The notes beneath the pieces were generated by a model. It was not told where the DNA came from. It did not search any database and saw nothing but the letters and a program-made list of their open reading frames with translations. This document shows, one piece after another, positions 29,849 through 58,280 of a stretch of DNA of 64,000 bases (the first letter of the stretch is position 1; each line of letters begins with the position of its first letter). The stretch is from an uncultured delta proteobacterium. Its GTDB lineage: Bacteria; Desulfobacterota; Desulfobaccia; Desulfobaccales; 0-14-0-80-60-11. Made by a program: the position numbers and the translations under genes. The stretch is from NCBI GenBank assembly GCA_963797235.1, contig CAWCOX010000009.1:205158-269157 (forward strand), read 5' to 3'.

Positions 29849-29853
29849 TAGTT

Positions 29854-37477: not shown

Positions 37478-37588
37478 TAGAATGCGGTTGCCGCTCAAGA
37501 CGCAAGAATAACCATTACTAATGATTACCTTTTTTGAAAATAGCCTCTTGCCATCGAGGCATTTACGGAGCCTTTTCCAGGGGGCTTT

Positions 37589-38014
37589 ATGCAGCCGGTA
37601 AGCCTCAACCCTTTGAGCCCCTGGGCTCCCGGTTTGCTCAGCCTCGTCCTGTATACCGGCGTCGTTCTGGGCCTGCTGGGGCTGCTGTTGGTCCTGACCC
37701 GCTGGCTGGGCGAACAGAAGCCCGACTTCGAAAAAGCCAGGCCCTACGAATGCGGGGTGATCCCCACCGGCGGGGCCCGGTTCCGTTATCCGGTGCCCTT
37801 CTACCTGGTGGCGGTCTTCTTTCTCATCTTCGACGTGGAGAGCGCCCTGATCTTTTCCTGGGCGGTGGCCATCGAGGCACTCAGCTGGCGCGGCTGGCTG
37901 CAAATCTCCTTTTTCATCATCGTCCTGCTCGTCAGTCTCGTTTACCTGTGGAAAAAAGGAGGGCTGGATTGGCGGCCCCAGTTACTACGAAAGGCGTCAC
38001 CACCCCGGAGTTGA
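37589..38014 (+). CDS. nuoA: NADH-quinone oxidoreductase subunit A
   Basis: 3 TM, the PYECG motif, and FDVESALIF. Confidence 0.9.
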
Positions 38015-40429
38015 TCCGCGGTCTGGAATACCTGAACCGGCCTCGTTTTGAGGGCGTCGGCCCCACGAGCCGGGGAATCGAGCGCGGCCTGGACCTGGTG
38101 GTCAACTGGTGCCGGGCCTACAGCTTCTGGCCGCTCTTCTTCGGGCTGTCCTGCTGTTTCATCGAAGAGATCACCGCCTGGACGCCGCGCTTCGACATCT
38201 CCCGATTCGGGGCCGAGGTCATCAGGGGCTCGCCCCGGCAGGCGGACCTGCTGATCGTTTCCGGCACGGTCTTCAAGAAGATCGCCCCGGTGGTGCTCAG
38301 GCTCTATGAGCAGATGACCGAACCGAAATGGGTCATCTCCATGGGCTCCTGCTCCAACTGCGGCGGCATGTACGACTGCTACAGCGTGGTTCAGGGCGTC
38401 GACCAGATCCTGCCGGTGGATATCTACATCCCCGGCTGCCCGCCCCGGCCCGAGGCGGTGATGCAGTCCATCGTGCTGCTCCAGGAGAAGGTCATGTCCG
38501 AGCGGCCGCTGCGCAAGATCCTGCACCGGCCCGGCGGCACTCAGGGCACCCAGACCCCCATCCTGGTGGACGGCCTGACCAAGACCCGGGACCCCCGCGG
38601 CCCCGGCTATTACGGCACCCCGCCCCGGGGCAGCGAAGAGACGCCGCCGATGTTTTGGGACGCCCGGTCCGACCTGATGTGGACCCCGCCGCCTAACTTC
38701 CTCGAATTGAGCGAGACGGACCGATCCCTGGCCCAGTCCCTGACGGCAAAATTCGGGGACGCGGTGGCCCAGGCGGAAAATACCTCGGACATGCTCACCT
38801 TTCAGGTGGCGCCGGCGCGGGTCGAAGAAGTGCTGCGCTTTTTAAAGACCGAGTCCGAGCCCAAATTCTCGCGCCTGGACGACCTGACCGCGGTGGATGA
38901 AACGGCCCGCCGGGAGCGGGAGCAGTACCCGGACTACACCCTGAACTACCAGCTCCTCTCCTTTGAGTCCGCCTCGCGGGTGCGCCTCAAGGTGCCGCTG
39001 CATGGGCCCGGAGCCGGCGATCCCCACCATCACCGGCATCTGGCCCTCGGCCGACTGGTACGAGCGGGAAGCCTTCGACATGTTCGGCATCCTTTTTACG
39101 GGGCATCCCCGGCTGTGGCGTCTCCTCATGCCGCACGACTGGGAGGGGCATCCGCTCAGAAAGAGCTACCCGGACCGGGCCACCGATATGCCGCCCTACA
39201 CCCATTACGACGCCCAGAAGCGCCAGCCGCGGGATGCCGGGGAGTACATGGCCGGGCGCCTGGCCGAAGACCAGTACGTTCTGAATATCGGCCCGCACCA
39301 CACCAGCACCCACGGCCTGATTCGGTTTATCCTGGCCCTCCGGGGCGAAGAGATCACGGCGATCGACACGGACATCGGCTACCACCACCGGGCAGCGGAG
39401 AAGATCGGCGAGCGCCAGTCCTGGCACCAGTACATCCCCTACACCGACCGGGTGGACTATCTCACCGGGGTGGCCAATAACCTCACTTACCTGCTGGCGG
39501 TGGAGCAGTTGGCCGGCATCCAGGTGCCGGACCGGGCCCAATTCATCCGGGTGATGCTCACCGAGTTTTTCAGGTTAAGCAACCACCTGGTCTGGTTTTC
39601 CACCTATACCCAGGACACCGGGGCCATGACCCCCACTTTCTACTGTTTTGCCGAGCGGGAAAAGATCCTGGACATCGTGGAGCTGATCACCGGGGGGCGG
39701 CTGCACCCCGCCTGGTTCCGCCTGGGCGGCGTGGCCATGGACCTGCCCGACGGCTGGAAGGAACTGGTGGACGATTTCGTCAAGGTCTTCCCCCGGCGCA
39801 TCAAGGAGTTCGAGGCCCTGATCACCAAGAACCCCATCTTCGAGGCCCGGACCCGGGAGGTGGGTTATCTCTCCCGGCAGGACGCCATGGAGTGGGGGGT
39901 CACCGGGGCCAACCTCAGGGCCAGCGGCCTGGAGTGGGACCTCAGGAAGAAGATGCCGTATTCGGGCTATGAGGCCTTCGACTTCGACATTCCCTACGCC
40001 ACGGGCGGCGATTGCTACGCCCGTTACCTGGTGCGGGTGGAGGAGATGCGCCAGAGCGTCCGCATCATCGAACAGGCGGCCAACCAGATGCCGCCGGGGC
40101 GCTGGCTCAGCGACGACTACCGTTACATCATTCCGCCCAAGGCAGAAACCCTGACGGACATCGAGACCCTGATTCACCATTTCATCAACGTCACCCGGGG
40201 GGCCAAGATTCCCCGGGGCGAGGCCTACGTGGCCACCGAGCACCCCCGGGGCGAGCAGGGAGTTTACGCGGCCAGCGACGGCCTGCACATGGCTTACCGG
40301 CTGCGTTTCCGGTCGCCCGGCTTTGCTCACGTCCAGGCCCTGCCCCTGATGGCGGTGGGGCACCTGATTTCGGATTTGATCGCCATCATCGGCTCCATTG
40401 ATTTCGTGTTGCCGGATATTGACCGGTAG
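37969..40429 (+). pseudogene. nuoBCD: Fused NADH-quinone oxidoreductase subunits B-C-D, one frameshift (~39005)
   Basis: NuoB: SCCFIEE...[11 protein letters not shown]...PGCPPRP. About 60 aa of Pro/Gly linker. NuoC: ..[17 protein letters not shown]. NuoD: [12 protein letters not shown]...[10 protein letters not shown]. There is no stop between the modules. TTG 37969 has AGGAGG 6 nt upstream; the alternative start is TTG 38011. Confidence 0.85.
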
Positions 40430-40447
40430 GGTTTGAGACACCAGATA

Positions 40448-40616
40448 GCTCACGCAAAGACGCAAAGGCGCCAAGGCGCAGGGTGCGCCCCGGATATTGA
40501 TCGGTGAACCAGATGAAATAAAAAACAAATCCCCCCTAACCCCCCTTTGATAAAGGGGGGGAGAAGAAACGGGAGTCAAAGTCCCCCTTTGGAAAAGGGG
40601 GATTTAGGGGGATTTT
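40448..40616. repeat. Repeat cluster in the nuoD-nuoE gap: an ACGCAAAG array plus an AAATCCCCCC/GGGGGGATTT double hairpin
   Basis: gctcacgcaaagacgcaaaggcgccaaggcgcagggtgcgcc, then aaatcccccctaacccccctttgataaaggggggg...ccccctttggaaaagggggatttagggggattt. Confidence 0.85.
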
Positions 40617-40640
40617 AGGATGCCCAACAGATAAAAACTT

Positions 40641-41135
40641 ATGATCCCAGCGGAATTACGAGAAAAATTGCAGGCCGAAATTGCCGGGGCGGAACACCCC
40701 CGGGAACAGGCGATCAACGTCATGTACGCGGTCCAGGGACACTATGGCTACCTGACCGACGAGGGTCTGGTGGAGGCGGCGGACCTCCTCGAGCTGACTC
40801 CGCTGGAGTTGGAGGAACTGGCCACCTTTTACGACTTCATCTACCGCCGGCCGGTGGGCAAATATGTCATCCACGTGTGCGACGGGGTGGTCTGCTGGAT
40901 GTTCCACGAAAACTGCGTGTTCGATTATCTCAGCCAGAAGCTGGGAGTCGGTGCGGGGGAGGTTTCGGCGGACGGCTGGTTCACGGTGCTGCCCACGGCC
41001 TGCATCGGCTACTGTGACCACGCCCCGGCCATGCTGATCAACGGCAAGATGTACGGCCCGCTCACGCCGGAGCTGATCGACGAGATTTTGGAGAAATTAA
41101 AGACCGAATACTGTGACCTGGTGGTCTGTAAGTGA
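40641..41135 (+). CDS. nuoE: NADH-quinone oxidoreductase subunit E (24 kDa, 2Fe-2S)
   Basis: VCDGVVC...ACIGYCDHAPAM Cys ligand pattern. Confidence 0.9.
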   Translation: MIPAELREKLQAEIAGAEHPREQAINVMYAVQGHYGYLTDEGLVEAADLLELTPLELEELATFYDFIYRRPVGKYVIHVCDGVVCWMFHENCVFDYLSQKLGVGAGEVSADGWFTVLPTACIGYCDHAPAMLINGKMYGPLTPELIDEILEKLKTEYCDLVVCK

Positions 41136-41148
41136 ACAGAATCGTTCA

Positions 41149-41225
41149 GACCGGGGACGGGAGACGGAGGACTGGGGCAAAACCTCGGTCCCCGGCGCAC
41201 CAGGATGGCGGGCGAGACGCCCGCC
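41149..41225. repeat. Repeat cluster in the nuoE-nuoF gap: a GGGAGACGG array hairpin plus a GGCGGGCG hairpin
   Basis: gaccggggacgggagacggaggac...cctcggtccccggc (sibling at 53011-53070), then ggcgggcg-aga-cgcccgcc. Confidence 0.8.
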
Positions 41226-41275
41226 CCATTGCACCGAGGCCGGCCCCACCAGTTATGGTTGAGCCGTAGCTCAGA

Positions 41276-42588
41276 ATGGACCCTATGACTGAAGAAGTCC
41301 TGTTCAAAAACCGCCGGCCCGACCGCCCTGCCACTATTGACGAGTATCGGCAGAGCGGCGGCTATGAGGCGTTGATCAAGGCCGTGAGAGAGCGGACGCC
41401 GGAGGAGGTGCGGCAACTGGTGCTGGACTCCGGTCTCCGGGGCCGGGGCGGCGCCGGCTTTCCCACCGGCCGCAAGTGGTCTTTCATCCCCGCGGATGCG
41501 GGCTTTCCGCGCTATGTGGTGCCCAACACCGACGAAATGGAGCCCGGCACCTTCAAGGACCGGGTGCTGGTGAACCTCGACCCCCACCTGGTCATTGAGG
41601 GTATCATTCTGAGCGGCTATGCGGTGGGGGCCGAGAAGGGCTATTTCTTTATCCGGCCTTCCTATGAACTGGACGCCCAGCTCATTGAAAGAGAAGTGGA
41701 AGTGGCCCGGCAGGCCGGCTTTTTGGGGAAGAATATTCTGGGGAGCGCTTTCTCTTTCGAGCTGATGGTGCACCGCAGTGCCGGGCGTTACATCTGCGGC
41801 GAGGCCACGGCCCAGGTCAACGCCCTCCAGGGTAATCGGGCTCACCCGATCAAGGACCGCCACATGGCCACCGACGGCCTCTGGCACCGGCCCACCATCG
41901 TCAACAACGCCGAGACCCTGGCCTGTGTGCCGGGCATTTTGCGACAAGGGGCGGAATGGTTCAAGGGCCTGGCCCGGACCAAGACCGGGGCCGGCACCAA
42001 GCTTTTCTGCGTCAGCGGCAAGGTCAACCGGCCCGGCTGCTTTGAGCTGCCCCTCGGCCTTCCCCTGAGGGAGATCATCGAAGAGTCGGCCGGGGGGCTG
42101 CTGCCGGGCTCGGAGCTGAAGGCGGTGATGCCGGGCGGGGCCTCCACGGCCTTCATGCCCGCCAAATACTACGACGTGGAGATGGACTTCGAACCCTTGA
42201 GGCAGTGGGGCACCGGCTGGGGACCGCGGCCATCATGGTCTTTGACCATAACACCTGTCTGGTGGCCGCCACCCTGAACCTGATCGAATATTTCGCCCGG
42301 GAATCCTGCGGCTACTGCACCCCCTGCCGGGAAGGGCTGCCGTATATCCGGGACCTGCTGTGGCGGATCGAGGCCGGGGAAGGCCGAGAGGAATTCATCC
42401 CCATGTTGCAGCAGATGGCCCGGCACATGGACAGCGCCTACTGCGGCTTCGCCCCCGGGGCGGCCGAGCCGGTCCTGGGCCTGCTGAAGTATTTTAGCGA
42501 CGAGATCCGGGAGCACATCAGCCAGAAGAAGTGTCCCTTTGGGGAGACCGACCGGCCGCACCGGAAGTTGTGGTACCCGGCGGAGTAA
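41276..42588 (+). pseudogene. nuoF: NADH-quinone oxidoreductase subunit F (51 kDa), one frameshift (~42205)
   Basis: GLRGRGGAGFPTGRKWSF (FMN/NADH site). After the shift: ESCGYCTPCREG (4Fe-4S). Confidence 0.9.
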
Positions 42589-42597
42589 AGCAAAAGA

Positions 42598-42720
42598 TGA
42601 ACCACCAAGACACCAAGAACACCAAGGTTCACCAAGAAGTTTTTCTGGGTCTGGCGCTGCCAGACCCAGAAAACCACCTTCTCTTAGTGTTTCTTGGTGC
42701 CCTTGGTGTCTTGGTGGTGA
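42598..42720. repeat. Composite palindromic CACCAAG-array element in the nuoF-nuoG gap
   Basis: Arms accaccaagacaccaagaacaccaaggttcaccaagaag / cttagtgtttcttggtgcccttggtgtcttggtggtg. Core ttctgggtctggc-gc-tgccagacccagaa. Confidence 0.85.
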
Positions 42721-42729
42721 GAATTTATT

Positions 42730-45226
42730 ATGCCTAAGCTCATCATCGATCAGCGGCCCATCGAGGTCCCGGCCGGGACCAAGGTCATTGCCGCGGCCGA
42801 GCAGCTGGGGATCATGATCCCGCGGTTCTGCTACCACCCCGGCCTGGGATCTTTCGGGGCCTGCCGCATGTGCGCCGTCAAGTTCCTGGAAGGGCCGGTC
42901 AAGGGCATCGAGATGAGCTGCATGGAAGACGCCCGGGACGGCATGGTGGTCTCGACCACCGACCCCGAGGCCATGGAGTTCCGCCGGTACGTCATCGAGT
43001 GGCTGATGATGCACCACCCCCTGGACTGCCCGGTGTGCGATGAAGGCGGGCACTGCCTGCTGCAGGACGAGACCGTCTCCGGCGGCCACGGCCATGCGGC
43101 GTTACCTGGGCCCCAAGCGCACCTACCAGGACCAGTATCTGGGGGCTTTCGTGCAGCACGAAATGAACCGCTGCATCCAGTGCTGGCGCTGCCGCAATTT
43201 TTACCAGGAATTCGCGGGCTACCGGGATTTCGGGGCCATGCAGATCGCCAACCGCATGTACTTCGGGCGCTACGAGGACGGGCCGCTGGCGAGCCCCTTT
43301 TCCGGCAACCTCATCGACCTGTGCCCCACCGGGGTGCTCACCGACAAACCGGCCCGCTTCGTCGGGCGGCGCTGGGATTTCGAGCGGGCCCCGTCGCTGT
43401 GTATCCATTGCTCCCTGGGCTGCAACACCACGGGCAGCGCCCGCTACCGCCAGATGTGGCGCCAGGAAGGGCGCTTCAATGAAATGGTGAACGGCTACTT
43501 CATTTGCGACCGGGGGCGTTACGGCTTTGCCTATGAGAGCCACCCGGAGCGGCCCCGCCGGGCCAGGATTGCCGGGGTGGAAGTGGCCTGGGCGGAGGCG
43601 ATCCAGGCGGCCGCAGCCAGGCTTAGCCACCTGGCGGCAACCTCCGGCCCCGGGGCCGTCGCCTGCCTGGGTTCGAGCCGCAGCAGCCTGGAGAGCCAGG
43701 CGATGCTGAAGCGGTTTTGCCGGACCTTGGGTTGGACCGAGCCCCGCTATTTCACCGTGCCCTCGCAAGAGCGCAAGGTCAGGGCCGCGGTCTCGCGGCT
43801 GGAGGCGGGCCTGGCCGTATCCCTGCGAGAGCTGGAAGCGGCGGATTTTATCCTGGTGGCCGGGGCCGACCCGGTGAACGAGGCCCCCATGCTGGCCCTG
43901 GCCCTGCGCCAGGCCTGGCGTAGGGGCGGGCAAGTGGTGGTGCTGGACCCGCGGCCGGTTGCGCTTGCCCTTCGACTTTGAGCATCTGCCGCTTTCTCCA
44001 GGGGACCTCAATCAGGGTCTGGGTGCCCTGGTCCGTGGGGCTCTGGCTGGCAGAAACTTGACGAATCTCACTCCAAAGACTCGTCAATTTGCCGCGACCC
44101 TGCCTGAAAAGCCTGATCTGGAACCTGCAATTCGTGATCGTCTGGCCGCCTTAAGGCAAAAGCTCGGCCAAAGCAAAAGGCCGGTCATCGTCTGTGGCAC
44201 CGATATTGTCAAGGAGTCCACGCCAGCCTTGGCCGCCGATTTGGCCCTGCTGCTGCGAGAACTCGAGATCAATGCCGGCCTCTTCTATGTCCTGCCCGGC
44301 GCCAATACCTTCGGGGCCAGTCTATTGTCAGCGGAGCATGAGCAGCCATGGATCGAGGCCCTGGAAGCCGGCGCCGTCAAGGCCCTGCTGGCGATAGAGT
44401 GCGACCCCTTCTGGGACTACCCGGACCGGGAGCGCCTGGCCCGGGCCTTGGACAAGCTGGAGTTGCTGGTGGTCCTGGACTACCTGCCTTCGCCACTGGT
44501 GCAGCGGGCGGATATCGTCTTGCCCACCCTCACCGTATTCGAGCGCACCGCTGCCAGCTTCGTCAACCAGGAGGGCCGGCTGCAACTGGCGCCGCCGGTG
44601 CACCTGGGTGGCAGCCCCCTGGCCCAGGTCAGCCCGGAGTTGCACCCGCCCCGGACCTTCCTGAGCCACGTCCCCGGCGGCGAGCCTCGGACGGCCGGGG
44701 AGATTTTAGCGGAGTTGGCCGCGGCCATGTCCCCGCCGGCGGCGTTGCCGGTCGCAGACCTCTGGGATTGGCTGGGCCGGGAGAGTGCCGTTTTCGCCAA
44801 TCTTGCCGCGCTGTTCTCGCCGCCGCCGGGAGCGCGACTTCTGCCCCGGCCGCTACGGCTGGGGCCTATGCCCCGGCCGCGGCGCCGGCCCCGGAGTCGC
44901 CCCCTCCGGACCACCTGGAGCTGCTGCTGGTGGACTCAACCTTCGGGACCGAAGAACTGGCCAGTTATGCCAAATATATCCAGCAGGTGGAAGAGCCGCC
45001 CCGGCTGTGCATGCAAACTGCCGACGCGGCTAAAAACGGCCTTGAAGCTGGGGACCTGGTGGCCTTGCGGCTCCCGGCGGGTGAACTGAGGGTGGCGCTC
45101 CAGGTGGCGGAAAATATGGCTCCCGGGGTCCTGGTGCTGCCCCGGCATCGGCAACTGAACTGGCGCCGGGCGCCGGATTATCAGGTTTCGCTCTCTTCGG
45201 GCGACCTCGTCAAGGTGGAAGAATAG
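42730..45226 (+). pseudogene. nuoG: NADH-quinone oxidoreductase subunit G (75 kDa), three frameshifts (~43090, ~43965, ~44850)
   Basis: CYHPGLGSFGACRMC (2Fe-2S), HPLDCPVCDEGGHC, NRCIQCWRCRNF, CPTGVL, then a molybdopterin-like domain. Four overlapping ORFs read as one protein. Confidence 0.85.
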
Positions 45227-46218
45227 TGTCGGTCTGGGTCCTGGGCATAATCGTCTTGATCGTCAAGCTCCTCATCGTCCTGGTGGCGCTGCTGCTGGTG
45301 GCCGCCTACCTGGTCTACGTGGAGCGCCGCCTCCTGGGGTTCATGCAACTGCGCCTGGGCCCGAACCGGTGCGGACCTCAGGGCTTGCTGCAGCCCCTCG
45401 CCGACGCCGTCAAGCTGCTGACCAAGGAGGATTTCATCCCGGCCGGGGCCGACCGGGTCATCTTCCTCTACGCCCCGGCAGTGGTGGCGGGCACGGCGCT
45501 GCTGATCTTTGCGGTGGTGCCCTTTGCCCGGGGCTGGACCTTCCGGGGCCAGGAGATCCCGGGAGTAATCAGCGATCTCAACGTCGGCCTGCTCTTCGTC
45601 CTGGCGCTCTCGTCCCTGGGGGTTTATGGCGTGGCCCTGGGAGGCTGGGCCTCCAACTCCAAGTTTGCCCTGCTGGGGGCCATCCGGGCCGCGGCCCAGA
45701 TGATCAGCTATGAGCTCTCCCTGGGCCTCTCCCTGGCGCCGGTGGTAATGCTGGCCCGCTCTTTTTCCCTGGTGGACATCGTCCAGGCGCAGGCGCGTTT
45801 GCCGTTCATCATCTTGCAGCCCGTGGCCTTTCTGATCTTTTTCATCAGCGCCGTGGCCGAAATGAAGCGCATCCCCTTCGACATCCCGGAAGCGGAAAAC
45901 GAACTGGTGGCCGGATATCACATGGAATACAGCGGCATGCGCTTCGGGCTCTATTTTTTGGGAGAGTACGTCACCATGGTGATCCTGGGGGCCCTGGTGG
46001 CGGTCTTCTTCCTGGGCGGCTGGCGGGGGCCGTGGCTGCCGCCCCTGGCCTGGTTCTTGATCAAGGTCTTTATCGTCGTCTTTACCCTCATCTGGCTGCG
46101 GGCCACCTATCCCCGGCTGCGCTTCGACCAGTTGATGGAATTCGGCTGGAAGGTCTTGATTCCCCTGGCGCTGCTGAATATCGTCATTACCGGCGGCGTC
46201 ATTTTGGCGATGGGGTGA
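45226..46218 (+). CDS. nuoH: NADH-quinone oxidoreductase subunit H
   Basis: 330 aa, 8 TM. ..LLQPLADAVKLLTKED.., EAENELVAGYHMEYSGMRF. Confidence 0.9.
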   Translation: MSVWVLGIIVLIVKLLIVLVALLLVAAYLVYVERRLLGFMQLRLGPNRCGPQGLLQPLADAVKLLTKEDFIPAGADRVIFLYAPAVVAGTALLIFAVVPFARGWTFRGQEIPGVISDLNVGLLFVLALSSLGVYGVALGGWASNSKFALLGAIRAAAQMISYELSLGLSLAPVVMLARSFSLVDIVQAQARLPFIILQPVAFLIFFISAVAEMKRIPFDIPEAENELVAGYHMEYSGMRFGLYFLGEYVTMVILGALVAVFFLGGWRGPWLPPLAWFLIKVFIVVFTLIWLRATYPRLRFDQLMEFGWKVLIPLALLNIVITGGVILAMG

Positions 46219-46264
46219 GGCAGCCGCAAGGTTAGCCTGCGCAGGCTGAAGCCTGCGGCTACCG
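46219..46264. repeat. GCAGGCTGAAGCCTGCGGCTAC hairpin element in the nuoH-methyltransferase gap
   Basis: gcagccgcaaggttagcctgcgcaggctgaagcctgcggctacc. Siblings at 58257-58280 and 36538-36555. Confidence 0.8.
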
Positions 46265-46295
46265 GGTCAGGCCCCTGCCCGCCAAGGAGACGGAG

Positions 46296-46889
46296 ATGGT
46301 CCATACTCCCGAGGTCTCTGCAACCAGGCCCCCCGGGGCCGGGAAAAGCAGCTTCGACCTTATCGAGCCGGCCAGGCTCCTGGATGAGCTGCCGCTCTTA
46401 CCGGGGATCACCTTCCTGGACCTGGGCTGCGGCGCCGGCAATTATACCCTGGCGGTGGCCGAAGTCATCGGCGCGCACGGCGTGGTCGTGGCCCTGGACC
46501 TGTGGCCCCCGGGAATCGAGGCTCTGGAAGAGCGGGCCGCGGCCGCCGGCCGCCGGAATATCCGGGCGCAGCTGGCGGACATCAGCAAGCTCGTTCCCCT
46601 GGGCGATCACAGTGTCGACGTCTGCCTGCTGGCCACGGTGCTCCACGACCTGGCGGAATTCGCCCTGGCCGAGGGCGCTTTGCAGGAAGCCCACCGGGTC
46701 TTGAAGCCCGGCGGCGCCCTGGCCGTGGTGGAGTTCGACAAGGTCGATGGCCCGCCGGGGCCGCCGAGGCGGATCCGGCTGGCCCCGGAGGAAGTGGAAC
46801 ATCTGGTCGTGCCTTATGGCTTTCAGAAGACCCGGACGGCCCGGGTCGGGCCATATAATTATTTGATTTTATTTACCAAAGAATCGTAG
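46296..46889 (+). CDS. Class I SAM-dependent methyltransferase embedded between nuoH and nuoI
   Basis: 197 aa. Motif I LDLGCGAGNY, post-I VVALD, motif III-like LKPGGALAVVEF. Confidence 0.8.
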   Translation: MVHTPEVSATRPPGAGKSSFDLIEPARLLDELPLLPGITFLDLGCGAGNYTLAVAEVIGAHGVVVALDLWPPGIEALEERAAAAGRRNIRAQLADISKLVPLGDHSVDVCLLATVLHDLAEFALAEGALQEAHRVLKPGGALAVVEFDKVDGPPGPPRRIRLAPEEVEHLVVPYGFQKTRTARVGPYNYLILFTKES

Positions 46890-46913
46890 GGGCGGCTCGC
46901 GAGCCGCCCCTAC
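46886..46913. repeat. Perfect 28-nt palindrome GTAGGGGCGGCTCGCGAGCCGCCCCTAC containing the methyltransferase stop codon
   Basis: Read directly. It is a perfect 14+14 nt palindrome. A related copy lies at 48467-48490. Confidence 0.9.
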
Positions 46914-46928
46914 AGGGGACGAGGAGCA

Positions 46929-47501
46929 ATGCCGGAAGTCAAAGACCCCGGACGGGGTCGGCCTAATATCTTGAGGGTGGTGGGCCGGGGCGTCGCCGGG
47001 CTGTGGCAGGGGCTGATGATGGTGCTGCGTCACCTGGGACGGCGGCCGGTCACCGAGCAATATCCCGAGTACAAGCGCTTCCTGCCGGAGCGGGCCCGGG
47101 CCCGGATCATCCTCACCCGGGACCCGGACGGCGAGGAACGCTGCGTCGCCTGCTTCCTGTGCTCGGCGGTCTGCCCCACCAGTTGCATCTCCATGGTCTG
47201 CGGCGAACGGGGCGGCCGGCGTTTCGCCCCCTGGTTCCGGATCAATTTCGCCCGCTGCATATACTGCGGCCTGTGCGAGGAGGCCTGCCCCACCCTGGCC
47301 ATCCAGCTCACACCTTTTTACGAGTTTTGCGAGCCCGACATCCTGGCCATGGTGGCGGAGAAGAAAGACCTGCTGATGGACCATGGCGGCAAGAACCGCG
47401 AATACAACTTTTACCGCTTTGCCGGGGTGGCCATGGTGGGCGGCAAGGGCAGCCATGTCGACGAGGCCGCCCCGGTGGACCTGAAGAGCAATCTGCCCTG
47501 A
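46929..47501 (+). CDS. nuoI: NADH-quinone oxidoreductase subunit I (2x 4Fe-4S)
   Basis: CVACFLCSAVCP and CIYCGLCEEACP. Confidence 0.9.
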   Translation: MPEVKDPGRGRPNILRVVGRGVAGLWQGLMMVLRHLGRRPVTEQYPEYKRFLPERARARIILTRDPDGEERCVACFLCSAVCPTSCISMVCGERGGRRFAPWFRINFARCIYCGLCEEACPTLAIQLTPFYEFCEPDILAMVAEKKDLLMDHGGKNREYNFYRFAGVAMVGGKGSHVDEAAPVDLKSNLP

Positions 47502-47502
47502 A

Positions 47503-47540
47503 GGCAGTGGCCAGTGGTCAGTAGTCAGTAAAAACCAAAG
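47503..47540. repeat. CAGTGGYCAGT array ending ..AGTAAAAACCAAAG in the nuoI-nuoJ gap
   Basis: ggcagtggccagtggtcagtagtcagtaaaaaccaaag. Confidence 0.8.
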
Positions 47541-47565
47541 TGGGTGGACAAAAGGCTTAAAAAGC

Positions 47566-48064
47566 CATGAATCTGTACGCCGTGATCTTTTACATATTGG
47601 CCGCCTCATCCTGGTGAGCACCGCCCTGGCCGTGACCCGGCGTAATCTGATGCACGCCATCGTCTATCTGGTGCTCTCTTTTTTTGGCACGGCGCTGCTC
47701 TTTTATCTGCTGGGGGCGCCGTTTCTGGCGGTCCTGGAGGTGATCATCTACGCCGGGGCCATCATGGTGCTGTTTCTGTTCATCGTCATGATGCTGGAGG
47801 TCCGGGCCTCGGAGGAGCCGATCGGCGCCTATCTGCTCAGATGGTTGCCCGCCGCGGTTTTGGGAGCCCTGAGTCTGGCCGCGGCCTTCGTGTTGATCAT
47901 GTTCAAGTCCGGCCACAGCCTGCCGCTGCCCTTGGCCGCGGCGTCGCCCCTGGAATTCGGGCCGGTTTCTGTTCCAGAGGTACTGGTTTTCGGTGGAGAT
48001 CGTCTCCTTTCTGCTCTTTGTGGCCCTGGTGGGGGCCTTGTATTTGGGGCGAAGGGAGGAATAG
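47566..48064 (+). pseudogene. nuoJ: NADH-quinone oxidoreductase subunit J, two frameshifts (~47600, ~47965)
   Basis: MNLYAVIFYILAA | LVSTALAVTRRNLMHAIVYLVLSF... | ..FQRYWFSVEIVSFLLFVALVGALYLGRREE* is reconstructed from three frames. Confidence 0.8.
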
Positions 48065-48080
48065 GGGCGTTAGGGACTAA

Positions 48081-48101
48081 GGGCGAACACAAGGTTCGCC
48101 C
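48081..48101. repeat. GGGCGAAC/GTTCGCCC hairpin in the nuoJ-nuoK gap
   Basis: gggcgaac-acaag-gttcgccc, followed by ctac. Confidence 0.7.
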
Positions 48102-48113
48102 CTACGGGAAATT

Positions 48114-48425
48114 ATGAACACTATCGTTCCATATAGTCACGTGCTGGTTCTGGCCGGGGCCGTCTTTTTCCTGGGCGCGGCCTGCGCGGTGGCCCGGCGC
48201 AATCTGGTGATGATCCTCATCGGCGTCGAGGTGATGCTGAACGCCGCCGGGGTGGCCCTGGTGGCCGCCTCACTGCGCTGGCAGCAGTTGGACGGCCAGG
48301 CGCTGGTGATCTTCATCATGTGCGTGGCCGCGTCCGAAGTGGCCGTGGGCCTGGCCCTCATCGTCTATTCCCACCGGCGCACCGGCACCCTGGATGCCGA
48401 CCGCTATAATCTGATGAAGGGCTAA
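48114..48425 (+). CDS. nuoK: NADH-quinone oxidoreductase subunit K
   Basis: 103 aa, 3 TM. ..MLNAAGVALVAAS.., AASEVAVGLALIV. Confidence 0.9.
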   Translation: MNTIVPYSHVLVLAGAVFFLGAACAVARRNLVMILIGVEVMLNAAGVALVAASLRWQQLDGQALVIFIMCVAASEVAVGLALIVYSHRRTGTLDADRYNLMKG

Positions 48426-48466
48426 AGATTCATGGCGAAGGTCGGTTAGTCCCGAGGATTAAGATC

Positions 48467-48486
48467 GGGCGGCTCGAGAGCCGCCC
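48467..48486. repeat. GGGCGGCTC/GAGCCGCCC hairpin in the nuoK-nuoL gap
   Basis: gggcggctc-ga-gagccgccc, followed by ctac. Confidence 0.75.
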
Positions 48487-48499
48487 CTACAAAGGTAAA

Positions 48500-50475
48500 A
48501 TGGAAACCGTTCTCCTGCTCCTGCTGCTGTTGCCCCTGGGCGGCTTCGTGATCAACGCCGTGCTGGGCCGCTTTCTGCCCAGGCGGGCGGTGGAGGCGGT
48601 GGCCTGCGCCGCGGTCCTGGGGGCCATGTTCTGTGCCGCGGCGGCCCTGGTCCTGGCCGGCGACCGGGCCCACGACCTCACCTTCTGGCAGTGGTTCGGG
48701 GCCGGGGATTTTTCGACGGCCATGAACGTCCATTTCGATCCCCTGGCCGCGGTCATGGCGCTGATGGTCACCTTTGTGGCGAGCATCATCCACCTCTACT
48801 CCGCCGCCTTCATGCGGGAGGACGCCGACTACGTCCGGTTTTTCTGCTATTTGAACCTCTTCGTCTTCGCCATGCTGGTGATCACCACGGCGGACAGCCT
48901 GATCTTCGTCTACCTGGGCTGGGAGGGGGTGGGCTTCTGCTCTTATGCCCTGATCGGTTTCTGGTACCGGGACGAAGCCAACGCCAACGCCGGCCGCAAG
49001 GCCTTCATCTGCACCCGCATCGGCGACATCGCCTTCGGCGTGGCCCTGGGCCTGTGCTTCGTCCATTTCGGCAATTTTTCCATCACCCAGATCAATAGCC
49101 AGGCCGCGGGACTCAGTCCCACCCTGATCACCGTCCTGGCCCTGCTGTTGCTCTGGGCGGCGGTGGGTAAATCGGCGCAGCTACCCCTGACGGTGTGGCT
49201 GCCGGACGCCATGGCCGGCCCCACCCCGGTCTCGGCCCTGATCCACGCCGCCACCATGGTCACCGCCGGCACCTACCTGCTCATGCGGCTCTTTCCGTTG
49301 GTGTCGCTCTCGCCCACGGCCATGCTGATCATCGCCGGGGTGGGCGCCGTCACCGCGCTGTACGCCTCTTTCGCCGCCCTGGCCCAATGGGACCTCAAAA
49401 AGATGCTGGCCTACTCCACCATCAGCCAGGTGGGTTACATGTTCCTGGCGGTGGGGGCGGGCGACATCGTCGGCGGCCTCTTCCACCTGGTGTCCCACGC
49501 CTTCTTCAAGGCCCTGCTCTTTTTGACCGCGGGCATCGTCATCCAGGCCCTGGCCGAGGAACACAACATCTTCCGCATGGGCAACCTGCGCCGCCGCCTG
49601 CCCGCGGTTTATTGGCTGTTTCTGATCGGCGCCGTCTCCCTGAGCGCCTTTCCGCTGTTGGGGGGCTTCTTCAGCAAGGACCGCATCCTCTTGGCCACCT
49701 TTATCCATCCGGGAGCCACTTACAAAATCTTCTGGCTCCTCGGCCTGGCGGCGGCCTTTCTGACGCCGCTCTATACCTTCCGGGTCTTCTTCGTGGCCTT
49801 TCCGGAGCGGACCGACGGCGGGGGAGGCGAACCGATCCGGCCCATCCCCCGGTTCATGGCCTGGGTCCTCTGGCCCCTGGCGGTCTGCGCCCTGGGCGAC
49901 GGCCTGCTCAATCTGCCGGGGGGCATCGGCAAAGAACTTTTTGGGCAATTATCTGGCCGTCGTCCCCGGGGCCCGGCCGGACCTGGGGGCTCCCCCGGGG
50001 ACGGAATGGGCCATGGGAATTATCAGCGCCGTCATCGTGGTGGTCTCCATCGGCCTGGCCTACTGGCTTTACCGCCGCCGGCCGGCCCGGGAACCGGCGC
50101 TGGCAGGCTACTGGGGCCTCCTGTTTGCCGGCTTTTATCTCGACCGGCTCTATCAGTTGATCTTCGTCCGGCCTTATCAAGCGTATGGCCCGCTTTCTGT
50201 GGCGGCAGGTGGATGACCGTTACGATCAGCAAGTCATCGTCGGAGGCGCCCGGGCCCTCTTCCGGCCTTACCGGGCCCTGGCGAAATTCTGCTGGCTGCA
50301 GGTGGACGAACTGGTCATCGATGAGGGTGTGGTCAAGGCCGCCGACGGCCTGGTGTCTGTCTCCCGGGGCCTGGGGTATTGGACCACGGGGCGGCTGTCC
50401 ACCTATCTGAAGATGTTGCTCCTGGGCCTGACCATCTTTTTTGCCGCTCTGGGCCTGAGCTGGTACCTGTGGTAA
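48500..50475 (+). pseudogene. nuoL: NADH-quinone oxidoreductase subunit L, two frameshifts (~49935, ~50195)
   Basis: Antiporter-like core ..GKSAQLPLTVWLPDAMAGPTPVSALIHAATMVTAG... The C-terminal amphipathic helix and last TM are recovered from ORFs 49941-50216 and 50185-50475. Confidence 0.85.
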
Positions 50476-50485
50476 TAACGGAGGC

Positions 50486-52002
50486 ATGAATATGCTTCAA
50501 TTTCCCATACTTACCCTCATTATCTTCTGGCCGATCCTGGGCAGCTTTGTTGTCCTGGCGGTTTATCGGCGCCCGGACCTGGTCCGTTGGCTCAGTCTGC
50601 TGCGTCACCCTGGTGGAAATGGCCCTGGTGGCGGCGCTCTTTGGTCTCGACCTCCAGCCCCACGCCACGCCCCAGGGCACCTGGCTGCTGCTGGAGGACT
50701 ATGCCTGGATTCCATGGCTGGGGGCCCGCTACAGCCTGGGCCTGGACGGCATCAGCCTCCTGCTCCTGGCGCTGGTCGCCTTTCTGAATATCTTCTGCGT
50801 GCTCGTCTCCTGGCGGGCCATCGATTTTAAGCACGGCTCCTTCTATTTCTTCATCCTGTTCCTGGAGGGCACCCTGGCCGGCCTCTTTCTGGCCGCCGAT
50901 CTGCTGCTCTTTTACCTCTTTTGGGAGATCCAGATCATCCCCATGTTCTTCCTGGTGGGCATCTGGGGGCACGAGAACCGCATCCACGCGGCCATCAAGT
51001 TCCTGCTGTACACCCTGGCCGGCAGCCTGGTGATGCTCATCGCCCTGCTGATCCTCTACATCCTCCACGGGCAGGCGACCGGGGTTTACACCTTCTCGGT
51101 CTACCAGTTGACGCAGCATGGACCCCTGGGGCGCACCACCGAAGTCCTCTTGTTCGCCGCCTTTCTGCTGGCCTTCGGCATCAAGGTCCCGCTGCTGCCG
51201 GTGCATACCTGGCTGCCCGACACCCATACCGAGGCCCCCACCGCCGGCAGCGTGGTTCTGGCCGGGCTGCTCCTGAAGACCGGGGTTTACGCCATTTTCC
51301 GATTTGCCATCCCGTTCTTTCCCGAGGGCGCGCCAATACCTGGTGCCGCTCCTATTGATCCTGGGGATGGGCGGCCTGTTCTATGCCGGCTGGATCGCCC
51401 TGGCCCAGGCCGACATCAAGCGCCTGGTGGCCTACTCCAGCATCGCCCACATGGGCATGGTGATCATCGGCATCGTCATCTGGAACGCCGTGACCCTGAG
51501 CGGCGCCGTTTTACAGATGATCAACCATGGCCTGTCCACTTCGGCCCTGTTCATCATGGTGGGCATGCTGGACGAGCGCCTCCATTCCCGGAATTTCGCC
51601 GTAATGGGGGGCCTGTGGAGCAAAATGCCGGTATTCAGCGCCTTTTTCCTGCTGTTTGCCCTGTCGTCCCTGGGACTGCCGGGCCTCAATAATTTCGTGG
51701 GGGAGATGCTCATCCTGGTGGGCGCCTTCAAGGCCAACTGGTGGGTGGCGGTTTGGGGCTTTGTCGGCATCGTCTTCGGGGTGATCTACATCCTGCGGAT
51801 GGTGCAGGACTCCCTCTTCGGCGAACCCCGGGCCGAGCACGTCCTCTGGGACGTCAATTCCAGGGAGGTCGTCATCCTGGTGGTCCTGGCCGTGGCGGTG
51901 CTTTTCATCGGCCTGCACCCCGGGCCGGTGCTGCAATGGCTGGATCAGCCGGTGCAGATGATGCTGCACCAGACCACCCAGGTGGCCTGGCTGCCTAGAT
52001 AG
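50486..52002 (+). pseudogene. nuoM: NADH-quinone oxidoreductase subunit M, two frameshifts (~50590, ~51330)
   Basis: GGAGG SD. ..FGIKVPLLPVHTWLPDTHTEAPTAGSVVLAGLLLKTG.. and ..KRLVAYSSIAHMGMV.. lie in successive frames. Confidence 0.85.
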
Positions 52003-52018
52003 AAAATTGGGAGAGACC

Positions 52019-53044
52019 ATGGAATACACGCAAATTCCGGGGACCGATCTCAAGGTGTCCCGTATTGCCTTGGGCACCTGGGCCATGGGCGGCTGGATGT
52101 GGGGCGGCACCGATGAAGCCCTGGCCATCAAGACCATCCATGCCGCCATCGACAAGGGCATCAACCTGATCGATACCGCGCCGGTGTACGGCTTCGGCCG
52201 CTCGGAGCAGATCGTCGGTAAGGCCCTGGCCCTCAAAAAATGCCGGGAGCAGGTTTGCATCTCCACCAAGACCGGGCTGGACTGGCAGGAAGGCAAGGTC
52301 TTCCGCAACTGCTCGCCGGAGTTTATCAAACGGAATGTGGCCGACTCCCTCAAAAATCTGCAAACCGATTACCTGGACATCCTGTTCGTGCATTGGCCCG
52401 ACCCCCTGGAACCTTTTGAGGAGACCGGCAAGGTCATGGCGCAGTTGCGGCAAGAGGGGAAGATCCGGGCCGTGGGGGTGAGCAATTATTCGCCGGAGCA
52501 GATTGAGGCCTTCCAAAAGGGCGGCCCGGTGCATCTGGCCCAGCCGCCTTATAACCTCTTCGAGCGGGCCATTGAGGCGGAATTGATGCCCTTCTGCCGG
52601 AAAAATCAGGTGGCGCTGATGGCTTACGGCGCCTTATGCCGCGGCCTCCTGTCGGGCCGGGTCACGGCCGACCGGCAATATCAGGGTGACGACCTGCGCA
52701 AGATCGACCCGAAGTTCAAGCCGCCGCGCCTTTCGCAGTATCTGGCGGCCGTGAAACTGCTGGACGAGTTCGCCCGGAAACGATTTGAGCGGCGGGTGCT
52801 CCACCTGGCGGTGCGTTGGGTCCTGGACCAGGGCGCCGAGATCGCCCTGTGGGGCGGCCGGCAGCCGGAGCAACTGGACCCGGTGCCCGAGATTAGCGGC
52901 TGGAACCTGGAGCAGGCCGACCTGCACGCCATTGACCAGATACTGGCGGCAACCATTAAAGACCCGGTGGGGCCGGAATTCATGGCGCCGCCGGCCCGGG
53001 AAGCGGAGGTAGACGGGAGACGGGAGACGGAGACGGAGCATTGA
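52019..53044 (+). CDS. Aldo-keto reductase embedded between nuoM and nuoN
   Basis: MEYTQIPGTDLKVSRIALGTWAMGG..., DTAPVYGFGRSEQIVGKAL, ..GVSNYSPEQIE.. (AKR family). ATG 52019 with a GGGAGAG SD, 16 nt after the nuoM stop. Confidence 0.8.
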   Translation: MEYTQIPGTDLKVSRIALGTWAMGGWMWGGTDEALAIKTIHAAIDKGINLIDTAPVYGFGRSEQIVGKALALKKCREQVCISTKTGLDWQEGKVFRNCSPEFIKRNVADSLKNLQTDYLDILFVHWPDPLEPFEETGKVMAQLRQEGKIRAVGVSNYSPEQIEAFQKGGPVHLAQPPYNLFERAIEAELMPFCRKNQVALMAYGALCRGLLSGRVTADRQYQGDDLRKIDPKFKPPRLSQYLAAVKLLDEFARKRFERRVLHLAVRWVLDQGAEIALWGGRQPEQLDPVPEISGWNLEQADLHAIDQILAATIKDPVGPEFMAPPAREAEVDGRRETETEH

Positions 53045-53070
53045 CCTCGGTCCCCCGTCATCCGGTCTCC
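53011..53070. repeat. GACGGGA/GACGGAG array hairpin spanning the AKR stop codon
   Basis: agacgggagacgggagacggagacggag-cattgac-ctcggtcccccgtcatccggtctcc. It encodes the AKR tail ..VDGRRETETEH*. Confidence 0.8.
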
Positions 53071-53110
53071 TGGTCTTTATTAGGTGAAAACCAAGCAATG
53101 GTAACGACCC

Positions 53111-54547
53111 ATGTCCACTGATTGGCCGGGGCTGCTCCCGGTGGTTATCCTGGCCGGAGGCGGCTCGCTCATCTTCTGCGCCGGGGCCTTCTGGCGGCGT
53201 CTGCCCGAGGGGGTGCTCTTCGCCCTGGCCTTGCTCAGCGCCGGGGCCGCCGGGGCCGCGGCCCTCTGGATAACCCCGGCTAACCCCACCTCCGAAGGCA
53301 TGCTGGACCTGGGGGGCTACGCCCGGTTTTTCACCTGCCTGTTCATGCTGATCACCCTCCTGACCTGCCTGTTCCTGCGGCAGTATGCCCGGGCCCGGGG
53401 CTTGGCCGGCGATGAACTTTACGGCCTGGTCCTCTTTGCCGCCCTGGGGATGGTGCTGGTGGCCGGGGCCTTGAACTGGGTCATCTTTTTTTTGGGGTTC
53501 CAGCTCATCTCCCTGTCCCTGTATGTCCTGATCGCGGTGCGCAAGGGCGAGGCCGCCTCCAATGAGGCGGGGCTAAAATATTTCATCGTGAGCGCCGTGG
53601 CCTCGGGCTTCCTCACCTTCGGCATTGCTTTGCTCTACGCGGTGAGCGGCACCCTCCAGGTGGCCGGCTCCCTGGCGGCCCTGGCCCATCCCCAGGACCT
53701 GCCGGTGATCCTGCTGGCCCTGGCCCTGATCCTGGTGGGGATCGGCTTCAAGACCTCCCTGGTGCCCTTTCACCTCTGGACCCCGGATGTCTACCAGGGG
53801 GCCCCGGCCCCGGTGACCGCCTTTCTGTCCACCGGCTCCAAGGTGGCCCTGTTTGCCGCACTGCTGCGCTTTTCCCTGCTGGCGGCCGCACCGGTATGGG
53901 CTTATTGCCTGCCGGCCCTTTGGGTCCTGGCGGCCCTCACCCTGACGGTGGGCAACGTCACTGCGCTCTATCAAACGCAAATCAAACGCCTGCTGGCCTA
54001 CTCCTCCATCGGCCAGATGGGCTACCTCTTCATGACCCTGTTGGCCGTCAAACAGGGCGGCCTGCCGGCCCTGATGTTTTACCTGGTGGTCTATGCGGTC
54101 ATGGACCTGGGGGCCTTCGGGCTGATCGGCAGCTTGTCGCCGGGCCAGGCGCAGTCCGACCTGGACGATTTGGCCGACTACCAGGGGTTGGGTTACTCTC
54201 AGCCCTGGCGGGCGGGCCTCCTGGCCGTCTGCCTCATCTCCCTGGCGGGGCTGCCGCCCACGGCCGGCTTCATGGGAAAATTCGCCCTGTTCCGGGCGGT
54301 GCTGCACTCCGGCTACCTGATCCTGGCGGTCATCGGCATCCTGACCGCCATCATCTCCCTTTACTATTATTTTAAGGTGACGGTCTCGCTCTACATGCAG
54401 CCGGCCGGGCCCGAGGCGGCGGTGCCCAGGGGCGATCTGGCGGTGGGCCTGGCCGGCGCGGTGATCCTGGGGCTGATTCTCTGGCTGGGCCTGGCGCCGT
54501 CGGTCCTGTTCGACCTGGTCGATCGGCTCGCCTCGGCCCTGCCATGA
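53111..54547 (+). CDS. nuoN: NADH-quinone oxidoreductase subunit N
   Basis: 478 aa, about 14 TM. ..GFKTSLVPFHLWTPDVYQGAPAPVTAFLSTGSK.., KRLLAYSSIGQMGY. Confidence 0.9.
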   Translation: MSTDWPGLLPVVILAGGGSLIFCAGAFWRRLPEGVLFALALLSAGAAGAAALWITPANPTSEGMLDLGGYARFFTCLFMLITLLTCLFLRQYARARGLAGDELYGLVLFAALGMVLVAGALNWVIFFLGFQLISLSLYVLIAVRKGEAASNEAGLKYFIVSAVASGFLTFGIALLYAVSGTLQVAGSLAALAHPQDLPVILLALALILVGIGFKTSLVPFHLWTPDVYQGAPAPVTAFLSTGSKVALFAALLRFSLLAAAPVWAYCLPALWVLAALTLTVGNVTALYQTQIKRLLAYSSIGQMGYLFMTLLAVKQGGLPALMFYLVVYAVMDLGAFGLIGSLSPGQAQSDLDDLADYQGLGYSQPWRAGLLAVCLISLAGLPPTAGFMGKFALFRAVLHSGYLILAVIGILTAIISLYYYFKVTVSLYMQPAGPEAAVPRGDLAVGLAGAVILGLILWLGLAPSVLFDLVDRLASALP

Positions 54548-54921: not shown

Positions 54922-56112
54922 ATGAAGAGCGCCGCGAGCACGACCATCCAACAGGATTTCCAGGTAAGCTTCCGCTACCCGGTCCACTTCACCTCGGGTC
55001 TGTTCGATCCGGGGAATCCCCTGTTGCAGGAGGTCATCCGGGACGGCGGCGGCGACCTGCCCAAAAAGGTGCTGGCCGTGGTGGATCGCGGCCTTTACCG
55101 GCACCATCCCGGCTTGCTGGCGGACCTCGAAGAGTATTGCCGGGAACATGCCGAAGTCATCGTCCTGGCCGGTGCGCCTTTGCTTTTGCCCGGGGGCGAG
55201 GCGGTGAAGAACGAGCCGCTGCACGTCACCATCCTGCACCAGGCCATCCAGGCGGCGGGTTTGTGCCGCCATTCCTACGTGGCGGCCGTGGGCGGCGGCG
55301 CCCTCATCGACACGGTGGGCTTCGCCACGGCCACCGCCCACCGGGGGGTGCGGCTCCTCCGGGTGCCCACCACGGTGCTATCCCAGGCCGACGCCGCCAT
55401 CGGCGTGAAAAACAGCGTCAACGCCATGGGGCAGAAAAACTTCTTGGGGGTCTTCGCTCCGCCGGCCGCGGTGCTCAATGATAGCGATTTTTTAACCACC
55501 CTGTCCCAGAAAGACTGGATCGGCGGGGTGGCCGAAGCCGTCAAAGTAGCCCTCATTAAGGATGCGGATTTCTTTATCTTCCTGGAGAGCCGGGCCGAGG
55601 CCCTGGTGCAGCGGGATTTGCCGGCCATGCGAGAGGTCATTGAGCGCTGCGCCGCCTTGCACCTGGAGCACATCGCCACCTCCGGCGATCCCTTTGAGCA
55701 AGGCAGCTCCCGGCCTCTGGACTTCGGCCATTGGGCCGCCCACCGGCTGGAGCTGCTCAGCGGCTTCGAGCTGGGGCACGGGGAGGCGGTGGCCGTGGGC
55801 ATCGCCCTGGACACCACTTACTCCTATCTGGCCGGTCTATTGCCCAAGGTTGCCTGGCATCGGGTTTTGGAACTGCTGACCAACCTCGGTTTTACCCTGT
55901 ATGTTCCCCAACTCGACCAGCGCGGGGCTATCCTTCAGGGTCTGGAAGATTTCCGGGCCCACCTGGGGGGACGCCTCACCGTCATGCTCCTCTGGGATAT
56001 CGGGCAGGGCATGGAGGCCCACGAAATAGACCAGCAGACGGTCAGGGCCGCCCTGGACTTGCTGCGCCGGATCACTGTTGAAGATAGTGAGCATTTAGCA
56101 GTGAGCAGTTAG
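54922..56112 (+). CDS. 3-dehydroquinate-synthase-family sugar-phosphate cyclase (EboD-like, not canonical AroB)
   Basis: GGGALIDTVGFATATAHRGVRLLRVPTTVLSQADAAIGVKNSVN..GQKNFLGVFAPP. This is the DHQS fold, but AAIGVKNSVN replaces the AroB-type SSVGGKTGIN. The C-terminal tail is encoded by a repeat. Confidence 0.65.
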   Translation: MKSAASTTIQQDFQVSFRYPVHFTSGLFDPGNPLLQEVIRDGGGDLPKKVLAVVDRGLYRHHPGLLADLEEYCREHAEVIVLAGAPLLLPGGEAVKNEPLHVTILHQAIQAAGLCRHSYVAAVGGGALIDTVGFATATAHRGVRLLRVPTTVLSQADAAIGVKNSVNAMGQKNFLGVFAPPAAVLNDSDFLTTLSQKDWIGGVAEAVKVALIKDADFFIFLESRAEALVQRDLPAMREVIERCAALHLEHIATSGDPFEQGSSRPLDFGHWAAHRLELLSGFELGHGEAVAVGIALDTTYSYLAGLLPKVAWHRVLELLTNLGFTLYVPQLDQRGAILQGLEDFRAHLGGRLTVMLLWDIGQGMEAHEIDQQTVRAALDLLRRITVEDSEHLAVSS

Positions 56113-56226
56113 CCAGAAGAAAAATGGAGAGCAGGCGACCTCGCCGGCAAAGAACAGCCGAGGGCGGCTGTTCTCCATCTTGCCTGACCGCTGACCGGAT
56201 AGCTGCTAACCCGCTAAATGCTTCTC
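56083..56226. repeat. Composite element: inverted GTGAGCAGT-type arms (56083-56114, 56184-56226) around 55-bp element copy B (56124-56178)
   Basis: Left agtgagcatttagcagtgagcagttagcc. Core atggagagcaggcgacctcgccggcaaagaacagccgagggcggctgttctccat. Right ctgaccgctgaccggatagctgctaacccgctaaatgct. Confidence 0.85.
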
Positions 56227-58226: not shown

Positions 58227-58256
58227 AAAGAAGCCTTCAGCAGTAAGCTAAGACAC

Positions 58257-58280
58257 GCAGGCTAAAGCCTGCGGCTACGG
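58257..58280. repeat. CGCAGGCTAAAGCCTGCGGCTACGG hairpin element
   Basis: Sibling of 46219-46264. Confidence 0.75.

Follow-up and report, generated by a model that had tools for sequence, protein, structure and literature searches.

The window, which is the whole 64,000-nucleotide stretch of DNA analysed here, carries a nuo operon on its + strand (37534..54547). As assigned by Pfam and tblastn, the operon consists of a fused nuoBCD followed by nuoE, nuoF, nuoG and nuoH, a gene for a class I SAM-dependent methyltransferase (hereafter MT), and then nuoI, nuoJ, nuoK, nuoL, nuoM and nuoN. The preliminary description of this DNA had assumed the canonical 14-gene layout, which does not apply in its plain form: nuoB, nuoC and nuoD are joined into one open reading frame of ~800-820 aa in the relatives as well, and this fusion is clade-wide (window 37534-40429; starts of loci L001, L004 and L005). 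The two genes that flank MT are intact. nuoH (45226..46218, + strand) encodes 330 aa and matches PF00146 with an E-value of 6.7e-125 as well as the NCBIfam NuoH equivalogs. nuoI (46929..47501, + strand) encodes 190 aa, is preceded by a GAGGAG Shine-Dalgarno sequence and scores 237.7 bits with NF004536 against a cut-off of 212.

In several other genes of the operon, comparison with intact relatives shows frameshifts. Using the Nuo proteins of L001 in tblastn searches, such breaks were found in nuoF, nuoG (three), nuoJ, nuoL (two) and nuoM (two). The frameshifted stretches of the window lie at 41276-45226, 47614-48117 and 48500-53044, with short runs of G, C or T at the junctions. The nearest species representative, L007, is an ‘MFD’ MAG that is comparably fragmented. 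These frameshifts are consistent with long-read indel errors and are read as such rather than as decay of the operon.

The MT gene itself (46296..46889, + strand) begins with ATG, 7 nt downstream of an AAGGAG Shine-Dalgarno sequence, and encodes a predicted soluble protein of 197 aa with a pI of 5.35. Residues 41-50 read LDLGCGAGNY. Pfam matches to Methyltransf_11, Methyltransf_31 and Methyltransf_25 have E-values of 5e-19 to 6e-17, the Methyltransf_11 match reaching 69.1 bits against a gathering score of 21.2. In the AF2 model (pLDDT 87.9) strands and helices alternate, and a fold search of the PDB matched more than 1,000 methyltransferase structures. Motif I, the acidic residue that ends strand 2 and the fold together place the product among the class I SAM methyltransferases; the earlier claim of a co-oriented 197-aa enzyme of this class between nuoH and nuoI is borne out by the open reading frame, Pfam and NCBIfam alike. 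Within the family, D42, G44, G46, G48 and D68 of the SAM site are invariant, as are K149, R161, H117, D118, S18 and S19, and the sole invariant cysteine is C45, within motif I. The median dN/dS of MT is 0.26, compared with 0.19 for nuoI and 0.17 for nuoH. Its GC3 (0.81) and codon usage agree with those of the adjacent nuo genes; on account of this agreement and of a position that is fixed clade-wide, a recent horizontal insertion was rejected. Because the SAM residues are invariant, dN/dS is ~0.26 and the composition resembles that of its neighbours, MT is best regarded as an active, selected and long-resident gene. Judged from its sequence, the product is apparently a catalytically competent soluble enzyme of ~21 kDa.

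The spacers on either side of MT had been described as gaps of 78 and 39 bp, both filled by hairpins. The downstream figure is right, while the upstream gap is in fact 77 bp (46219..46295, + strand); besides the Shine-Dalgarno sequence of MT it contains a REP-like palindromic repeat at 46238..46262. Of the two hairpins the downstream one stands. It is a perfect, GC-rich palindrome of 28 nt (46886..46913, + strand), with the MT stop codon inside it, a folding energy of -26.4 kcal/mol and a z-score of -2.6, and is thus non-random. The upstream fold, in contrast, is no better than shuffled sequences (z -0.95). The palindrome has the same sequence in L008 and L009, and variant GC-rich palindromes occupy the site in L014, L001, L020 and L026. 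Lineages with MT-nuoI spacers of 3-15 bp have no palindrome, and in others the spacer is made up of 135-317 bp of MITE-like repeats of the CCCCC/GGGGG type.

Palindromic MITE- or REP-like repeat families are dispersed through the window (40528-40643, 22036-22137, 42634-42680, 46238-46262 and 58253-58278). Two of these families can be named, one of the type AAATCCCCC...GGGGGATTT and the other CGCAGGCTnAAGCCTGCGGCTAC; the latter is the repeat in the nuoH-MT spacer, with a second copy at 58253..58278 and a half-copy at 36541. The dispersed repeats sit in intergenic spacers, also inside the nuo operon, and members of these families likewise occur in the MT-nuoI spacers of relatives. Rfam searches returned nothing above gathering scores. 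The palindrome at 46886..46913 lacks a U-tract behind it on the + strand and therefore does not qualify as an intrinsic terminator for this operon. A role of the hairpins as terminator or attenuator was discarded, given that the coding strand has no U-tract and that they are missing or replaced across lineages. From these sequence comparisons, the hairpins are variable REP- or MITE-like spacer passengers and not conserved features of the MT gene, although the palindromes may stabilise the mRNA.

The preliminary description had proposed that the nuo operons of related taxa be surveyed for the same insertion, and such a survey showed that it is widespread. A scan of GTDB species with MT returned 80 homologue loci, on which Nuo proteins were placed by tblastn. 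The order nuoH-MT-nuoI was found in 24 of the 80, with MT 58-95% identical to the query, and all 24 belong to MAGs classified as Desulfobaccales, as ‘Syntrophobacterales’ or as unclassified delta-proteobacteria. The same order was seen on metagenome contigs for P0024, P0054, P0071 and P0108, where each of the MT homologues (81, 70, 65 and 60% identity) has nuoH on one side and nuoI on the other. A second sample was drawn blind to MT, using five NuoH homologues of 78-88% identity (among the best 120 NuoH homologues, identity never falls below 78%). MT follows nuoH in all five of these NuoH-selected proteins, including 24 contigs for P0147, and nuoI comes next in four of them; a nuo operon lacking MT was not found among the five. 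In a neighbour-joining tree nearly all of the nuo-embedded MTs form a single clade, with L022 just outside it and L033, which is not embedded in nuo, inside. The carriers of MT found here are uncultured MAGs throughout. It would appear that the insertion goes back to the ancestor of a Desulfobaccales-type lineage, in which MT became a fixed additional cistron between nuoH and nuoI.

All nuo-embedded copies of MT are co-oriented with the nuo genes. The nuoH-MT spacers range from a 4-nt overlap (L094) through 9 bp (L014) up to 303 bp, and the MT-nuoI spacers from 3 bp (L017) to 317 bp. A scan of the window's own spacers and those of L001 and L020, with a promoter consensus of the sigma-70 type only, detected no promoter- or terminator-like sites on the + strand. 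MT therefore combines the properties by which a cistron is recognised, namely a shared strand, short or overlapping spacers, a conserved position and no detectable internal promoter or terminator, and its co-transcription with the nuo genes is strongly implied by this gene arrangement. Because the position is conserved, the spacers are short, no promoter or terminator is seen and dN/dS is ~0.26, MT is probably a co-transcribed and selected cistron. As no promoter of its own was detected, it would be expressed by read-through from the nuo promoter, and translational coupling to nuoH is probable in some relatives, as the overlap in L094 suggests. The preliminary description had counted it against its proposal if MT proved to have its own promoter and terminator and to be absent from the nuo operons of close relatives; neither was seen, and MT can be counted as a conserved cistron.

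That MT forms a transcription unit of its own, or that it is an insertion now in decay and without function, is very improbable. The spacers of 200-300 bp in some relatives could hide a promoter, and the scan covered only sigma-70-type sites. Against this, the open reading frames are intact clade-wide, the SAM motifs are invariant and dN/dS is ~0.26; where spacers are not overlapping or as short as 3-9 bp, the long ones consist of palindromic repeats with no conserved promoter blocks.

By far the best match in both profile and fold searches is PDB entry 3DH0, an uncharacterised structural genomics target from Aquifex aeolicus (hmmsearch E 7.8e-28 over residues 18-189; Foldseek E 7e-18; TM 0.82-0.85; rmsd 2.0 Å; 29% identity). 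The two proteins have in common a compact fold of ~190 aa and the motifs LH(D/E)L and (W/F)-K-K...GPP, whereas the N-terminal AGKSSF motif of the MT family is not present in 3DH0. By its length of ~190 aa, its full-length similarity and its LH(D/E)L and K..GPP..R motifs, MT belongs to a 3DH0-like compact family. At E<=1e-30 the MT family comprises 246 clusters (50% identity). The structural matches that come after 3DH0 are small-molecule methyltransferases, namely TleD, MitM, RebM, Rv0560c (TM 0.70) and AtmM.

The two kinds of known enzyme with which the preliminary description had proposed to compare MT, NDUFAF7 with NDUFAF5 on the one hand and UbiE/MenG on the other, did not emerge as its nearest relatives from structure and sequence searches, which led instead to the uncharacterised Aquifex protein and then to generic small-molecule methyltransferases. 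NDUFAF7/MidA and NDUFAF5 are mitochondrial complex I biogenesis factors with a SAM-methyltransferase fold, and no specific relationship of either to MT was found. MT is not a member of the NDUFAF7/MidA family: PF02636 (Methyltransf_28, DUF185) is not among its 13 Pfam matches, and no NDUFAF7-type chain is among its sequence or fold matches in the PDB. NDUFAF5 carries a Methyltransf_11-type domain, and this generic domain is all that it has in common with MT, which is about half its length. No NCBIfam model reaches its cut-off. Membership of the UbiE/MenG family of quinone methyltransferases was not supported by these searches either. MT matches Ubie_methyltran (PF01209) with 57 bits (E 2e-15), but through the Rossmann core only (profile positions 46-158 of 233), and the curated models give 45.6 bits against 158.35 for TIGR01934 and 45.8 against 216 for NF001244, with partial coverage. 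UbiE and MenG proteins are also longer, at ~230-260 aa. MT is therefore like UbiE, MenG and COQ5 in its Rossmann core while, at 197 aa, it falls below every curated equivalog and subfamily cut-off. The Coq5 structure 4OBW is matched with an E-value of only 6e-4 in the profile search. When an approximate E. coli UbiE query was run against 1.16 Mb of fetched loci, it matched only the Rossmann core of MT itself, a result of little weight that applies to these loci and not to whole genomes. An identity as the arsenite methyltransferase ArsM was likewise rejected, as PRK11873 scores 56.5 bits against 263 and the sole invariant cysteine lies in motif I.

Homologues of MT are also found away from nuo genes. 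In 56 of the 80 returned loci the MT homologue is 46-60% identical and has no nuo gene nearby; the labels of the MAGs concerned include Desulfobacterales, Geobacteraceae, Nitrospirota, Chloroflexota, Actinomycetota and Aminicenantes. Forty-eight positions are conserved at 85% or more in both the nuo and the non-nuo group, including GxGxG, D68, H117, D118 and the EFxKxxGPPGPPxxIRL motif, so that every recognisable motif is covered. P13, R80 and R86 are the only positions peculiar to the nuo group. No specific neighbour recurs among the 56 non-nuo loci. The neighbour clusters that do recur there are generic histidine kinases, sigma-54 activators and ABC ATPases, while genes for rubrerythrin, rhodanese, ABC-3 and cupin proteins each lie beside only 3-4 of them. 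Being generic, the recurrent neighbours give no functional clue of the kind that a conserved neighbourhood might have provided. Members of the family are fused to NifX-like, Pro_CA_2, TrmO_N and HD domains and to a second O-methyltransferase domain, and these fusions are too heterogeneous to serve as a Rosetta stone. Since the 48 positions are common to both groups, the non-nuo contexts are unrelated and the fusions are heterogeneous, the simplest reading is that of one enzyme function which moved into nuo in one lineage.

Locus L033 provides a natural control, in that MT has been kept while the flanking nuo genes have been lost. Its positions 1-7118 match window 22984-31760 and end with a transketolase gene, and positions 8883-9555 match window 57625-58279, the alpha/beta hydrolase gene. 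Between these flanks lie only an intact MT of 198 aa and then what is left of nuoI, 35 codons from its 5' end. Missing are ~14.5 kb upstream of MT, including nuoA-H and the cytochrome b5/COX1-like/UbiA block, and ~10.7 kb downstream, comprising nuoI-N, eboD and eboE. Because the flanks are collinear with the window and a stump of nuoI is left, nuo must have been deleted on both sides with MT spared. The MT of L033 is 89% identical to that of its nuo-embedded sister L030, with a dN/dS of 0.31, and carries F20Y and P138A at sites that are otherwise invariant. At the level of sequence, this suggests selection for MT without its flanking complex I genes, although the deletion may be a recent event, or another nuo operon may be present elsewhere in L033.

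Other rearrangements are seen within the clade. In L007 an IS1595-family transposase and a DUF3800 gene lie between MT and nuoI (8600-10780), and in L017 genes for a YHS-domain protein and a heavy-metal (Cu-type) P-type ATPase lie between nuoI and nuoJ (9200-11700). Together with the MITE-like spacers, these cases show that the nuo operon of the MT clade tolerates other passengers. In L091 (2501-6002) nuoH and MT are followed by a MITE-like repeat and then, on the opposite strand, by PCC-domain genes and an acetyl-CoA hydrolase gene; the operon is broken directly after MT and no remnant of nuoI is left.

Three readings of the function of MT have to be weighed. The one tentatively preferred here, with somewhat less than even confidence, is that MT is a general-purpose small methyltransferase of a widespread family that has become a fixed passenger of the nuo operon and is expressed along with it. 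Its chemistry would be the same as that of its homologues outside nuo, which, to go by the structural neighbours, is likely to be methylation of a small acceptor. Its usefulness would not depend on complex I, and it would be a selected, long-standing passenger and not a maturation factor of the NDUFAF kind. Set against this reading is the fixed slot of MT, clade-wide, in a tightly packed operon devoted to a single complex, which is a classical sign of functional linkage. It is conceivable that MT is a complex I maturation factor that methylates a Nuo subunit, or a supernumerary subunit, and that its place in the operon serves stoichiometric co-production; our analysis makes this unlikely. Such a factor would account for the strict position between nuoH and nuoI, for the probable translational coupling in L094, for the retention of MT with nuoH in the split operon of L091 and for the restriction of R80 and R86 to the nuo group, and there are precedents in CI-PIMT of Paracoccus (PMC11522691) and urf7 of the R. 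capsulatus nuo cluster (PMC9036352). It is opposed by the lack of PF02636 and of any NDUFAF7-type PDB match, by the occurrence outside nuo, in many phyla, of homologues with the same conserved positions, by the retention of MT in L033 without flanking nuo genes, and by domain fusions in the family that are unrelated to complex I (NifX-like, Pro_CA_2, TrmO_N and HD). The sequence after strand 4 of MT, ATVLHDL, also speaks against it. NDUFAF7 methylates an arginine of NDUFS2; amino-group N-methyltransferases have a (D/N)PPY motif and PRMTs a double-E loop, and ATVLHDL is neither. Because the 56 non-nuo homologues share the 48 positions and L033 has kept MT, the gene is, on its sequence, probably not a dedicated complex I factor. 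Even so, R80 and R86, the invariant extra surface arginines of the nuo group, could form a docking patch. That MT is a true complex I factor of the Desulfobaccales, methylating a Nuo subunit or a bound cofactor or docking through the R80/R86 patch, is quite unlikely; were it so, either a further nuo operon or the recency of the deletion would account for the retention of MT in L033.

The third reading, that MT is a respiratory small-molecule methyltransferase, is likewise unlikely. It would act on the quinone pool, in a MenG-like step or to give a modified menaquinone, or it would detoxify inhibitors of the quinone site, as Rv0560c does with HQNO. Any quinone-dependent chain would profit from a function of this type, which would therefore be retained without nuo; this fits both L033 and the spread of homologues over MAG groups. 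The partial Ubie_methyltran match, the presence of MenG, UbiE, MpqE and RquA models among the weak NCBIfam matches and the place of Rv0560c among the structural neighbours (TM 0.70) point the same way. The curated UbiE and MenG models, however, lie far below their cut-offs, it is the SAM-binding core alone that aligns, and the protein has only 197 aa. The match to Coq5 is marginal, and domain annotation of the neighbourhood of MT revealed no men or mqn genes. The invariant K149, R161, H117, D118, S18 and S19 may, moreover, form a polar acceptor pocket.

Open reading frames other than nuo genes have been known within alphaproteobacterial nuo operons for decades. To these MT adds one that is deeply conserved and clearly selected, in a different phylum. 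A literature search found no published description of MT between nuoH and nuoI. The novelty that the preliminary description had expected of an operon-encoded methyltransferase holds to this extent, and is weakened by two precedents. The first is urf7, an open reading frame in the nuo cluster of Rhodobacter capsulatus whose function has been predicted in silico only (PMC9036352). Like MT, it encodes a methyltransferase-fold protein inside a bacterial nuo gene cluster, but it belongs to the Methyltransf_24 family and to another phylum, and BLASTP of urf7 against MT gives an E-value of 4.4, which amounts to no similarity. The second is CI-PIMT, a supernumerary subunit of Paracoccus denitrificans complex I that was seen by cryo-EM and is a catalytically dead member of the PCMT family with the PIMT fold; in the same complex Arg65 of NDUFS2 is dimethylated (PMC11522691). 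CI-PIMT and MT are both class I methyltransferase-fold proteins linked to a bacterial complex I, MT through gene position alone. They differ in that CI-PIMT is dead and of the PCMT family, whereas MT is of a different family and has intact SAM motifs. If MT were a true complex I factor, it would be the first methyltransferase with its catalytic capacity intact to be part of a bacterial complex I operon in such a role. More broadly, if MT acted on either complex I or the quinone pool, this would mean that anaerobes have a previously unseen layer of respiratory-chain maturation; if it does neither, it offers a clean example of an unrelated gene locked inside an essential operon. The operon link is in any case the only functional lead obtained here for a methyltransferase family that is widespread, structurally solved and uncharacterised.

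The surroundings of the operon contain further genes that may be noted. Just 5' of it, on the opposite strand, lies a gene for a UbiA-like prenyltransferase (35492-36472). The adjoining region (31869-35525) encodes a divergent COX1-like protein (PF00115, 132 bits), which no NCBIfam model matches at E<=1e-6, with cytochrome b5/DUF2231 membrane proteins on both sides of it. Directly 3' of nuoN, at 54922-57510, are genes for a PRK06203-type 3-dehydroquinate synthase and an EboE-family TIM-barrel protein (NF035939, 440 bits), both of which are components of ‘ebo’ clusters. Further downstream, a large bacterial alpha-2-macroglobulin gene with MG2, A2M and bMG10 domains occupies 59484-63936 and is apparently split over two frames.
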